Source of the DNA: Alphaproteobacteria bacterium
GTDB lineage: Bacteria > Pseudomonadota > Alphaproteobacteria > GCA-016699305
Direction of reading: 5' to 3'
Assembly: GCA_016699305.1 (NCBI GenBank)
Contig: CP064970.1
Location: 389,647-453,646 of the forward strand
Length of the DNA: 64,000 nt
Position 1 is the stretch's first letter, and the number at the start of each line of letters is the position of its first letter. Of the stretch, positions 17,941 to 21,092 are shown in pieces. The position numbers and the translations under genes are program-made. The notes beneath the pieces are model-generated. The model saw nothing but the letters and a program-made list of their open reading frames with translations. It was not told where the DNA came from and did not search any database.

Positions 17941-18816
17941 ATGGCTAATCTCAAGGACTTACGCAATCGCATCGCCAGCGTGCGCGCGACGTGCAAGATC
18001 ACCTCGGCCATGAAAATGGTCGCGGCCAGCAAATTGCGACGCGCTCAAACGCAGGCCGAGAACGCGCGGCCTTATGCCGAGTCCTTGCAGGATATGCTGG
18101 CCTCGGTCTCTCAAGGCATCCCGGCGCATGACGATTCTTTGCCGGCCTGGGCGCGTGCCAGCGGCAATAAAAGTCCGGCACTGGTGGTTCTGACGTCGGA
18201 TCGCGGCCTGTGCGGCGGCTTCAACGCCTCGGTCGTGCGCGATGTGCGGCACAGGGTTGATGAGTTGGAGAAACAGGGAACGCCGCCCATCCTGATCTGC
18301 ATCGGGCGGCGTGGGCGCGACATGCTCAAACGGACCCACAGCAAATATATCGTCCACAGCATGGATTTTGGCCGCACGCCCTCTTATGCCGTGGCGCAGG
18401 ATTTGGCGGAAACCCTGGTTAAGCTGTTCACCCAAAGCAAACTGGACAGCTGCGATCTGATGTTCAACGCCTTCAAAAACGCCTTGCAGCAGGAGCTGCG
18501 CATGCGACGTATCATGCCCGCGCCCATGGACCCGCCCGAAGAGGCCGCCGCCAAGCCGACGGTCTGGCGTATCTATGAGCCGGGGCGAAACGAGATATTG
18601 GCCGGCCTGTTGCCCTTGAACATGAAGACGCAAATTTATCTGGCGATGGTCGAAAGCATGGCAGGCGAACATGCCGCGCGCATGACCGCTATGGACAGCG
18701 CCACACGCAATGCCAGCGAGATGATTGATCGCTTAAACCTGCGTTACAACCGGCTGCGCCAGGCGGCCATCACCACGGAGATGATCGAGATCGTCTCCGG
18801 CTCTGAGGCGATGTAG
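17941..18816 (+). CDS. atpG: F0F1 ATP synthase subunit gamma
   Basis: MANLKDLRNRIASVRATCKITSAMKMVAASKLRRAQ... and C-terminal ITTEMIEIVSGSEA. Confidence 0.95.
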   Translation: MANLKDLRNRIASVRATCKITSAMKMVAASKLRRAQTQAENARPYAESLQDMLASVSQGIPAHDDSLPAWARASGNKSPALVVLTSDRGLCGGFNASVVRDVRHRVDELEKQGTPPILICIGRRGRDMLKRTHSKYIVHSMDFGRTPSYAVAQDLAETLVKLFTQSKLDSCDLMFNAFKNALQQELRMRRIMPAPMDPPEEAAAKPTVWRIYEPGRNEILAGLLPLNMKTQIYLAMVESMAGEHAARMTAMDSATRNASEMIDRLNLRYNRLRQAAITTEMIEIVSGSEAM

Positions 18817-18819
18817 AGC

Positions 18820-19644
18820 ATGAGCGAGGCGCCCATCACCGGCGGTCCCTTTGACGCCCACACACCGCCCCAGATGGCGGCGTTGCTGCGCGATTATGGT
18901 GTCAAGAAGGCGCGTCTTGCGCCCGTGGCGATGATGACCTTAGGCCTGCTGGGCGGTGCCTACATCGCCTTGGGCGGCATGTTTTATACACTGGTGATGA
19001 CGGAAAGCGGCTTGGGTTTTGGGCCGTCGCGCCTGTTGGGCGGATTGGCCTTTTCGCTGGGTTTGGTTCTGGTGGTCGTGGGCGGGGCCGAATTGTTCAC
19101 CGGCAACACCATGCTGACGATGGCCTGGGCACAACGTTTGGTGCGCACGCGCGAATTGCTGGCCAATTGGCTGGTCATTTATCTGTGCAACTTCGCGGGT
19201 GCCTTGGCCATGGCCTTGATGATGTACGCTTCGGGCGTGTTGCATATTCATGACGACGCCATGGCGGCAACGGCGATCAAAATCGCAAGTGCCAAGACCT
19301 CTCTGGGCTTTGCCGAAGCGTTCTTTCGTGGCATTTTGTGCAATGTGCTGGTATGCCTTGGCGTGTGGCTATGCCTGGCGGCACGCAGTGTGTCCAGCAA
19401 GATCCTGGCGATCATCTTTCCCGTATCGGCCTTTGTGGCTTTGGGGTTTGAACATTCGGTCGCCAACATGTATCTGATCCCCTTGGGCATGATGGCGGGT
19501 GCGCCCGTGTCCTTGGGCAGTTTTGTTGCCAACCTCATCCCCGTCACGCTGGGCAATATCGTCGGCGGCGGGGTGCTGGTGGCACTGGTGTATTGGCTGG
19601 TTTATCTTAAAGGCTCCCACGACAACCCCGCATCCGGAGGATGA
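18820..19644 (+). CDS. formate/nitrite transporter (FNT) family channel
   Basis: 274-aa polytopic protein with FNT-like segments ([26 protein letters not shown]); 3-nt gap after atpG, 4-nt overlap with atpD. Confidence 0.8.
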
Positions 19645-21092
19645 CAACCGTGACCTCAACACCCACACCGACAAAGCAACTGACAGGCAAGGTTACCCAG
19701 GTTCTGGGCGCGGTGGTCGATATCATGTTCGATGCCGGTCTGCCTCCGATCGAGAACGCGCTGGAGACCGACATTGAAGGCCGCCGCATGGTGATGGAGG
19801 TCGCGCAGCATTTGGGCGAGAACTCCGTCCGCGCCATCGCGATGGACTCCACGGACGGCATGGCGCGCGGCCAGATCGTGCGAGATATGGGCGGCCCTAT
19901 TGCCGTTCCCGTCGGTCCTGGCACTTTGGGCCGCATTATGAATGTCATCGGCGACCCGGTGGACGAACGCGGCCCCATCGAAACCAAGCGGCGCGATCCC
20001 ATCCACCGCGAAGCCCCGACCTTTATCGAGCAGTCCACCGAAACCGAAGTTCTGGTCACCGGCATCAAAGTGGTGGATCTGCTGGCCCCTTATTCGCGCG
20101 GCGGCAAGGTTGGATTGTTCGGCGGCGCGGGCGTGGGCAAGACGGTGCTGATCCAAGAATTGATCAATAACGTCGCCAAGGCGCATGGCGGCAATTCGGT
20201 CTTCGCCGGCGTGGGTGAGCGCACGCGCGAAGGCAACGACCTGTATCACGAGATGATCGGCTCGGGCGTCATCAACCTGGATGGTCCGGGGTCAAAGGTG
20301 GCCCTGGTCTATGGCCAGATGAACGAGCCTCCCGGCGCGCGCGCGCGCGTGGGTCTGACCGGCCTGACCTTGGCCGAATATTTCCGTGATGATGAAGGTC
20401 AGGACGTTCTGCTCTTTATCGACAACATCTTCCGCTTTACCCAAGCCGGATCCGAGGTCTCGGCCTTGCTGGGCCGCATTCCATCGGCGGTGGGCTATCA
20501 GCCGACTTTGGCGACCGATATGGGCGAGCTGCAAGAGCGCATCACCTCGACGCGCAAAGGCTCGATCACCTCGGTGCAGGCCATCTATGTGCCCGCCGAC
20601 GACTTGACCGACCCCGCCCCTGCTACCTCCTTTGCGCATTTGGACGCCACCACGGTGCTGTCGCGCCAGATTGCCGAGCTTGGCATCTATCCGGCCGTGG
20701 ATCCGTTGGATTCCACCAGCCGCATCATGGACCCGCGCATCCTGGGCCAAGAGCATTATGAAACGGCACGCGCGGTGCAAAAAGTGCTGCAAACCTACAA
20801 GTCTTTGCAAGACATCATCGCCATCTTGGGCATGGACGAATTGTCCGAGGAAGACCGCATGATCGTCGCGCGCGCGCGCAAGATTCAGCGCTTCTTGTCT
20901 CAGCCTTTCCATGTGGCCGAGGTCTTCACCGGATCGCCCGGCGTTCTGGTGCGTTTGGAAGACACCATCAAGGGCTTTAAGGGAATCGTGGCGGGCGAAT
21001 ACGATCACCTTCCCGAACAGGCTTTTTACATGGTCGGCACCATCGAAGACGCCGTCGCCAAGGGCGAACGCCTGCAAGCCGAGGCCGCTTAA
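19641..21092 (+). CDS. atpD: F0F1 ATP synthase subunit beta
   Basis: Walker [41 protein letters not shown], full-length beta subunit. Confidence 0.96.

Follow-up and report, generated by a model that had tools for sequence, protein, structure and literature searches.

The genes for the F1 gamma and beta subunits, atpG and atpD, lie head to tail on the plus strand with a single FNT-family gene between them, according to the open reading frame calls for the 64 kb stretch of DNA analysed here, hereafter the window. The window belongs to a 2,060,775 bp (2.06 Mb) contig of a metagenome-assembled genome (MAG), and the genome measures about 2 Mb. The features of the locus are collected in Table 1.

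Table 1. Features of the atpG-FNT-atpD locus and its flanks, in window coordinates.
Feature	Position	Strand	Details
DsbD-like thiol:disulfide reductase gene, in the usual atpA position	15957-17711	+	PF11412, PF02683, PF13899
Promoter-like CTGACA-16 nt-TATAAT, candidate atpG-FNT-atpD promoter	17708-17735	+	11/12 of the sigma-70 consensus
Hairpin CCTGCC-cgctt-GGCAGG, then CTATTTTTCA; candidate dsbD terminator or leader attenuator	17851-17877	+	terminator-like match
atpG, F1 gamma, intact, unusually divergent	17941-18816	+	291 aa; NCBI QQR69450.1
FNT-family FocA-like anion channel gene, between atpG and atpD	18820-19644	+	274 aa; NCBI QQR69451.1
atpD, canonical F1 beta	19641-21092 (or from GTG 19650)	+	483 aa
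Strong hairpin in the 71-nt atpD/RTX spacer; candidate bidirectional terminator	21109-21173	.	MFE -34.3 kcal/mol
Convergent RTX repeat protein gene, in the usual atpC position	21164-26788	-	1874 aa; PF00353 26 matched stretches, PF06594 6

The three genes are packed as tightly as the initial annotation had described. Read directly from the sequence, the TAG stop of atpG (18814-18816) is followed by 'agc' and then by the FNT ATG at 18820, leaving a 3-nt gap; the FNT stop TGA (19642-19644) overlaps an ATG at 19641 as 'ATGA', an overlap of 4 nt. If atpD instead starts at the alternative GTG 19650, the second junction becomes a 5-nt gap, tight either way. A GGAGG at 19636-19640 abuts ATG 19641; because the same motif sits 9 nt upstream of GTG 19650, the latter is the better-spaced start, and it is the one used in two of three Logan contig gene calls.

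The order dsbD-atpG-FNT-atpD is spanned without a break in three independent short-read Logan assemblies from three runs. Contig L001 matches at 100% identity over 8,936 nt and has the same gene order; two more, from other sequencing runs (L002 and L003), share that order at 99.1% identity and represent a strain that is 0.9% divergent. Between the strains, the three genes together differ by 20 synonymous changes and 1 non-synonymous change, and all three are under purifying selection. Their GC3 values are closely similar: 0.77 for atpG, 0.74 for the FNT gene and 0.76 for atpD.

Profile scores above the Pfam or TIGR cut-offs bear out the three gene identities originally assigned, namely gamma, FNT family and beta. 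The gamma protein scores 319.5 bits against TIGR01146 (cut-off 194.45), a full-length match in which residues 1-291 align to model positions 1-286, and 313.5 bits against PF00231; against the alternate N-type gamma model TIGR03323 it reaches 89.8, below the cut-off of 282. Its sequence is unusual. This species itself aside, no gamma more than 52% identical to it was found among 5.8 billion proteins, and the closest one, P0125, sits in a canonical priA-atpHAGDC cluster (locus L088). On average it shares 46.5% identity with 72 relatives, which share 61% among themselves, and gamma is about 10 identity points more diverged than the divergence of beta predicts. It keeps 87.6% of the columns whose conservation among the relatives is 90% or more; every one of the relatives keeps at least 93%. 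The divergence is uneven along the protein: identity to the relatives' consensus is 0.80 over residues 1-30 and 0.73 over residues 241-270, and only 0.20-0.47 across residues 61-210. Thus, the N- and C-terminal coiled-coil helices of the rotor shaft are conserved and the middle of the protein has diverged. Between strains, atpG carries 6 synonymous changes and 1 non-synonymous change.

Beta is canonical. It scores 831.9 bits against TIGR01039 (cut-off 462.85) and 599.7 against the alternate N-ATPase beta model TIGR03305, whose cut-off is 752; its translation contains the Walker A motif GGAGVGKT and DELSEED. The protein is 78-83% identical to those of relatives and keeps 96.9% of the strongly conserved columns, and over the first 505 nt of atpD the strains differ by 8 synonymous changes and 0 non-synonymous ones.

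The FNT protein matches PF01226 at 263.8 bits (gathering threshold 34.6), with residues 19-260 on model positions 2-240, and scores 231.0 against TIGR00790, just below the cut-off of 232.3. Its scores fall below the FocA equivalog cut-offs (TIGR04060, 222.6 vs 290.1; NF008069, 194 vs 440) and below that of NirC (NF008595, 105.6 vs 293). The nearest solved structures are those of FocA, 3KLY (E=2e-53) and 3KCU, and the NirC-type entry PDB 4FC4 matches only at E=7e-25. The protein aligns end to end with FocA and has no extra domain for docking to F1Fo. A phmmer alignment to 3KCU shows that F75, L79, L89, T91, K156, N172, V175, F202, E208, H209 and N213 of FocA (E. coli numbering) are all retained. 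We take His209 and Thr91 to be the central residues of the pore, and F75, L79, L89, V175, F202, N172 and K156 to be its constriction residues. The gene is thus predicted to encode a functional formate-type channel for small monovalent anions. A pseudogene is ruled out by the intact reading frame and by strain differences that are all synonymous (6, against 0 non-synonymous). The host-like GC3 gives no compositional sign of recent import, and recent horizontal transfer was rejected on this ground. Terminator-like matches within the gene (12, with 7.6 +/- 2.8 expected) were discarded as noise.

The closest relatives of the FNT protein are 62-72% identical, and the few that are named are alphaproteobacterial or from Pseudomonadota. 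No atp gene was found near any of them in 88 loci, 80 from metagenomes and 8 retrieved by exact protein look-up. Their neighbours vary: GNAT and toxin-antitoxin genes, a CCA-adding enzyme with COQ9, Usp proteins, Mla genes and a hydrolase. Such unrelated and variable contexts argue that the gene stands alone and is not tied to a particular partner, and none of them supplied a conserved neighbour hinting at the substrate. A literature search covering FNT-atp linkage, the sequencing runs and the accession of the FNT protein returned nothing relevant.

Transcription signals flank the three genes. The proposal that atpG has a promoter of its own is plausible: the dsbD-atpG spacer, at 47% GC, holds the sole match to at least 11/12 positions of the sigma-70 consensus in 64 kb on both strands (about 0.44 expected). 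Its hexamers are unchanged in the second strain, which differs at 17718, 17722 and 17751. The true transcription start is uncertain because the T-run hairpin intervenes between this candidate promoter and atpG. The leader is not unusually structured (z = +1.39), and no credible Rfam match to a leader RNA motif was obtained in 17600-18000. On the upstream side, the Logan call of the DsbD-like gene starts at window position 16098 and gives 537 aa. Downstream, the hairpin in the atpD/RTX spacer is stable (z = -3.17; 0 of 200 shuffles fold as well), and the RTX gene does adjoin the 3' end of atpD as first reported, in convergent orientation 71 nt away; beyond it lies a low-GC stretch at 27-31 kb. 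Taken together, the tight junctions, the strong promoter-like site upstream and the hairpin after atpD suggest indirectly that atpG, the FNT gene and atpD may form a single transcription unit.

It also holds that atpA is missing upstream and atpC downstream. A tblastn search with proteins from up to 10 relatives (E<=1) detected no atpA, atpH or atpC, or remnants of them, in the 64 kb; nothing there was matched by the queries except atpD and the FliI-like gene at 51264-52634. Other operon genes in the window are orphaned as well: nuoC and fliI each occur alone, the start of nuoC overlapping the 3' end of def, and tatC is not accompanied by tatAB. Their presence in the same window points to general operon erosion.

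We compared the locus with the F1 loci of relatives. There, atpA lies upstream in 66 of the 69 loci with enough flank, atpD follows atpG in all 72, and atpC follows atpD in 68 of 68. An FNT gene was found in none of the 72, and the median atpG-atpD spacer is 54 nt, far looser than the junctions here. With 0/72 F1 loci and 0/88 FNT-relative loci showing the linkage, a channel gene inside the F1 genes is indeed unusual, and its association with atp genes has arisen once and not recurrently. The functional specialness that the initial annotation implied is a different matter, and the comparison does not sustain it. The atpA gene is likewise missing upstream of atpG in three alphaproteobacterial MAG loci (L030, L037 and L033), unrelated ORFs lie between atpG and atpD in three others (L040, L060 and L073), and nuoC, fliI and tatC are orphans in the window itself. 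The gamma-FNT-beta order is real and so far unique; each individual element of it has precedent elsewhere.

Probably, the locus arose as operons broke apart in a reduced orphan lineage, and the FNT gene is a passenger of long standing that uses the atpG promoter. Under this model, rearrangements would have cut an ancestral atpHAGDC cluster on both sides of atpG-atpD, and an FNT gene of alphaproteobacterial type would have lodged between gamma and beta, early enough for its codon usage to have become host-like and its junctions translationally coupled. The promoter in the dsbD-atpG spacer would drive all three genes, and transcription would end at the hairpin common to the convergent RTX gene. 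The alpha, delta and epsilon subunits, assumed to be encoded elsewhere in the genome, would join gamma and beta in an ordinary F1Fo, and the FNT gene would gain constitutive expression from the operon with no mechanistic role in ATP synthase. The gene order is thus most likely the outcome of genome shuffling and not a sign of a new machine. A plain passenger model does not explain the fast divergence of gamma.

Two readings give the FNT gene a role in its present position. Selection may have kept it between gamma and beta because the cell needs FNT expression to follow that of ATP synthase, for example for proton-linked formate or anion flux that buffers pH or proton-motive force, or for growth-proportional disposal of formate. 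This is unlikely, although junctions that are translationally coupled under either atpD start, set against the 54-nt median of relatives, and fully host-like codon usage, a record free of non-synonymous change and an order stable in two strains all speak for it; tight junctions and FNT conservation are also expected from selection for co-expression. It is weakened by the lack of FNT-atp linkage at any of the relatives' loci, by the PAP2-like and aspartyl-protease-like ORFs that fill the same slot elsewhere, which fits a permissive insertion site, and by the fact that a channel of 274 aa with no extra domain offers nothing to dock to F1Fo. A stronger version, in which a remodelled ATP synthase with altered regulation or proton economy has taken on the channel as a functional partner, strikes us as very unlikely, even as it would tie together the fast-evolving globular domain of gamma, the lost epsilon linkage and a coupled formate/H+ channel. 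Were it true, the enzyme might, for instance, be independent of epsilon, its activity balanced by anion-linked proton flux.

Other readings concern the F1 genes themselves or the assembly. A complete atpHAGDC could exist elsewhere in the genome, the gamma-beta pair here being either an incomplete second copy or a further F1 module with a specialised role. Such a history would account for the fast gamma, with its shortfall in conserved columns (87.6% vs at least 93%) and the roughly 10 points beyond the beta prediction, and yet it is improbable: beta is a canonical equivalog (832 bits), neither subunit reaches the alternate N-ATPase cut-offs, beta retains 96.9% of conserved columns with 8 synonymous changes and 0 non-synonymous ones, and redundancy is unlikely in a genome of about 2 Mb. 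That only one of the 120 gamma matches listed from the 5.8 billion proteins lies on the source contig is weak evidence against a second gamma that is equally or more similar. Decay of the whole enzyme, in which a host- or prey-dependent organism has shed alpha, delta and epsilon and the remaining gamma and beta are turning into pseudogenes, would suit the lack of atpA, atpH and atpC within 64 kb, the small genome and the fast-evolving gamma. We consider it very improbable, given full-length atpG and atpD reading frames with intact motifs, a ratio of 14 synonymous to 1 non-synonymous change over the two genes, and a beta as conserved as in free-living relatives. A chimera of unrelated fragments, produced by assembly or binning, would be conceivable for any metagenome-assembled genome; here it is practically precluded by the three independent Logan assemblies that span the locus (one at 100% over 8.9 kb, two from the 0.9% divergent strain) and by uniform composition across the junctions.

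If operon break-up with a passenger FNT gene is the correct account, linkage of the F1 genes is dispensable: gamma and beta stand apart from alpha and epsilon, with a membrane-channel gene between them, and still experience strong purifying selection. The locus would then be a natural case in which to ask how beta and gamma reach their 3:1 ratio once the normal operon is gone. It also draws attention to an alphaproteobacterial lineage, so far unsampled, whose genome is small and whose operons are eroding. The arrangement alone reveals no new mechanism.

Among known systems, the scattered atp genes of Anaplasmataceae offer one precedent for dispersal. Split ATP synthases resemble the present case in consisting of several unlinked units, a state that assembly of the enzyme evidently tolerates; here, however, beta and gamma remain in one unit, with gamma cut off from alpha and beta from epsilon. 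The usual cut in split operons lies between beta and gamma, and the split patterns described in the available part of the survey PMC5709465 do not include a unit of gamma and beta only. The Neorickettsia genome paper makes no statement on atp gene order. The atpHAGDC cluster, with the Fo genes in an operon of their own, was first described in Rhodospirillum rubrum and is given as the arrangement of 89.1% of Alphaproteobacteria in PMC5709465. The present locus shares with this canonical cluster gamma followed by beta on one strand, both as orthologous equivalogs, but it lacks delta and alpha on the upstream side and epsilon on the downstream side, and it carries a foreign channel gene between gamma and beta. 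The alternate N-type F1Fo ATPase has the order beta-epsilon-...-alpha-gamma, in contrast to gamma-X-beta here.

FocA of Enterobacteria and Vibrio (3KCU, 3KLY, 3Q7K) belongs to the same fold family as the FNT protein and has all the pore and gating residues checked; unlike it, FocA carries a loop insertion of about 20 residues and is encoded in focA-pflB, and the FNT gene here is not beside pflB. The nearest parallels to the gene order come from the relatives' loci. L030 and L037, preceded by a ribD-like gene and a ROK kinase, and L033, preceded by permeases and a ferredoxin, show the same alpha-gamma break, but in these clusters atpC is still in place and nothing is inserted between atpG and atpD. 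Conversely, an uncultured Micavibrio (L040) carries a PAP2-like ORF of 313 aa in the same atpG-atpD slot and on the same strand, and L060 and L073 carry an aspartyl-protease-like ORF there, also on the same strand, together with a DUF6036 nucleotidyltransferase between atpA and atpG. These three loci differ from the present one in the identity of the insert, in their looser junctions and in having both atpA and atpC.

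The genes atpG, FNT (formate/nitrite transporter family) and atpD lie head to tail on one strand, and their products correspond to NCBI accessions QQR69450-52 (MAG 'Alphaproteobacteria bacterium', 2,060,775-bp contig). Direct reading of the sequence placed the atpG stop codon TAG at 18814-16, followed by 'agc' and the FNT start codon. At the second junction, the FNT stop overlaps a candidate atpD ATG in the motif 'ATGA'. A GGAGG at 19636-40 abuts this ATG and stands 9 nt ahead of GTG 19650, which was used as the atpD start in two of three gene calls on independent contigs; this spacing and these calls suggest that beta probably starts at GTG 19650, giving an FNT-atpD gap of 5 nt. 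A DsbD-like gene lies upstream of atpG, and the downstream neighbor of atpD is a convergent RTX protein gene. At E<=1 the 64 kb window yielded no atpA, atpH or atpC and no remnants of them; its sole other alpha/beta-family ATPase is a FliI-like gene. The initial annotation, which described a tightly joined atpG-FNT-atpD unit with no atpA upstream or atpC downstream, was correct in every particular.

Coordinates of features in the window and, for loci with L numbers, in the fetched F1 loci of relatives
Feature	Position	Strand	Details
atpG, F1 gamma, 291 aa	17941-18816	+	PF00231 313 bits; TIGR01146 319.5 bits (cut-off 194)
FNT family protein, 274 aa	18820-19644	+	PF01226 263.8 bits
atpD, F1 beta, 483 aa	19641-21092	+	TIGR01039 831.9 bits (cut-off 463)
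Candidate promoter	17708-17735		CTGACA-16-TATAAT
Terminator-like hairpin and T-run	17851-17877		
Large ORF, 1168 aa	1453-4959	+	
nuoC region	14003-15177		NF004733 279 bits
RTX protein, 1874 aa	21164-26788	-	
Low-GC stretch	27000-31000		GC 35-47% vs ~57%
SLT/lysozyme-like ORF	28362-29519		GC 48%
ORF, no Pfam match	29565-30242		GC 33.6%
SRP RNA, bacterial small	46042-46137	+	
FliI/T3SS-type ATPase	51264-52634	-	
Thg1-like gene	54138-54959	-	GC 48.8%
tatC	56429-57268	+	
L030, atpG-atpD(-atpC)	8895-10888		no upstream atpA
L037, atpG-atpD(-atpC)	7440-9960		no upstream atpA
L033, atpG-atpD(-atpC)	7343-10891		no upstream atpA
L040, PAP2-like ORF	10916-11857		between atpG and atpD
L060, foreign ORFs	7660-8130, 9016-9396		inside F1 operon
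L073, foreign ORFs	7509-7979, 8865-9883		inside F1 operon

The RTX gene encodes a protein made of repeated modules, with 26 HemolysinCabind repeat matches and six HCBP_related domains, and is the cause of a strongly negative GC skew in the 21-27 kb interval. The annotated window ORFs include no gene for type I secretion. The low-GC stretch adjoining it, which holds the SLT/lysozyme-like ORF and the ORF without a Pfam match, is probably acquired DNA. Elsewhere in the window, a gene of the Thg1 (tRNA-His guanylyltransferase) family, which is uncommon in bacteria, is atypical in composition, and its codon-usage distance from the window (0.43) is the second highest among scored genes. The SRP RNA directly upstream of dnaX slightly overlaps the called GTG start at 46112, so the true dnaX start is probably further downstream. 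The only matches of the large ORF near the window start were weak ones, to HAMP and apolipoprotein-like (coiled-coil) profiles.

The candidate promoter lies within the dsbD-atpG spacer (47% GC) and is the only match to at least 11 of the 12 sigma-70 consensus positions on either strand of the whole window, where 0.44 would be expected; its hexamers are identical in a second strain. The small hairpin between it and the atpG start may be a dsbD terminator or a leader element/attenuator; the atpG leader hairpin region had no Rfam match, and leader folding stability was not unusual. No credible terminator was found between atpG, FNT and atpD, and a strong hairpin (z = -3.17) occupies the 71-nt spacer between atpD and the RTX gene. 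Together, the candidate promoter, the uninterrupted interior and the final hairpin indicate that the three genes are likely co-transcribed.

The closest solved relatives of the FNT protein are FocA channels (3KLY, E=2e-53, then 3Q7K and 3KCU), followed by Chlamydomonas LCIA (7e-48), the hydrosulfide channel (~3e-30), and PfFNT and NirC (~1e-25). All residues checked were identical to E. coli FocA (F75, L79, L89, T91, K156, N172, V175, F202, E208, H209 and N213), positions that we take from the FocA structures to be pore or gating residues. Because the protein falls short of the equivalog cut-offs for both FocA and NirC and lacks a FocA loop of about 20 residues, it is classed as a FocA-type member of the FNT family, a putative channel. 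Its GC3 (0.74) is host-like and close to the values for atpG (0.77) and atpD (0.76); the low-GC ORFs at 28-30 kb, by contrast, are clearly foreign. Its best relatives are 62-72% identical, the few named ones being alphaproteobacterial or Pseudomonadota, and their neighborhoods are variable and unrelated. The gene looks like an old resident without a fixed functional partner.

The gamma subunit has diverged far more than beta would predict, by about 10 identity points (residual ~-0.11, roughly 2.6 sd). On average it is 46.5% identical to 72 relatives, against 61% among the relatives themselves; the corresponding beta values are 80.4% and 83.1%. Gamma retains 87.6% of the columns conserved in at least 90% of relatives, where every other sequence retains at least 93%. 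The changes cluster in the globular domain (residues 61-210), leaving the terminal shaft helices conserved. One possible cause is that gamma now makes different contacts with an epsilon subunit or c-ring that is unlinked or itself changed. No gamma more than 52% identical was found outside this species among the matches listed from the GTDB species set and a 5.8-billion-protein search; beta, in contrast, shares 78-83% identity with its Rhodospirillales-like relatives. The organism is an orphan lineage.

Several other genes in the window are also detached from their usual operons. Ordinary housekeeping genes are present, with dnaA and rpsT near the window start. A canonical nuoC stands without adjacent nuoB or nuoD, its GTG start overlapping the def stop by 4 nt and a convergent algH-like gene following. 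The fliI gene is solitary, flanked by znuC and a response-regulator gene, and the annotated window ORFs of at least 150 aa include no further flagellar gene; tatC follows tsaD after ~180 nt, leaving no room for tatA/tatB upstream. These detached genes and the ~2 Mb contig point to general operon erosion in this genome.

The same gene order occurs on three short-read Logan contigs of this species from three sequencing runs. One is 100% identical to the window across 8,936 nt, from dnaA to atpD; the other two are 99.1% identical and therefore come from a second strain. The arrangement is real, and an assembly chimera has a negligible probability. Between the strains, atpG carries six synonymous differences and one non-synonymous, FNT six and none, and the first 505 nt of atpD eight and none. 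Because these 20-odd differences are nearly all silent, all three genes are functional and FNT is not a pseudogene; a decaying ATP synthase, despite the divergent gamma, is very improbable.

The best explanation, which we consider likely, combines a rearrangement origin, a passenger FNT and a conventional ATP synthase. Rearrangements in a reduced, fast-evolving lineage would have split atpG-atpD from atpHA and atpC, and an endogenous-type FNT gene would have settled between the two, to be co-expressed with them as a passenger. The ATP synthase itself would remain conventional, its remaining subunits encoded elsewhere. That selection has functionally coupled the channel to ATP synthase is unlikely, and gamma and beta as an accessory duplicate is somewhat less probable again.

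We compared the best 80 atpG loci, one genome per GTDB species, together with L088, the best match of the gamma search in 5.8 billion proteins. Among loci with enough flank, atpA lay just upstream of atpG in 66 of 69, atpD downstream of atpG in all 72, and atpC after atpD in all 68; none contained an FNT gene. Conversely, at 88 loci carrying FNT relatives (46-72% identical), no atpG or atpD was found in the flanking sequence covered, which extended up to 4-6 kb. A gamma-beta-only unit is also absent from the split patterns described in the sections of PMC5709465 covered here. From these counts and patterns, the combination is unique within the data reached.

Its individual components have precedents. 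The alpha-gamma break is shared with three alphaproteobacterial MAGs: in L030 and L037, a divergent ribD-like gene and an ROK kinase stand upstream of atpG-atpD-atpC, and in L033 the upstream neighbors are livHM-like permeases and a 2Fe-2S ferredoxin. Foreign ORFs also occur inside F1 operons that are otherwise intact: a PAP2-like ORF in L040 (uncultured Micavibrio), and, in the related MAGs L060 and L073, an aspartyl-protease-like ORF between atpG and atpD together with a DUF6036 nucleotidyltransferase gene in the atpA-atpG interval. Only the beta-epsilon break is without a counterpart among the sampled relatives. The atpG-FNT-atpD unit is a real variant, and apparently a unique one, of the known theme of split or interrupted atp operons.
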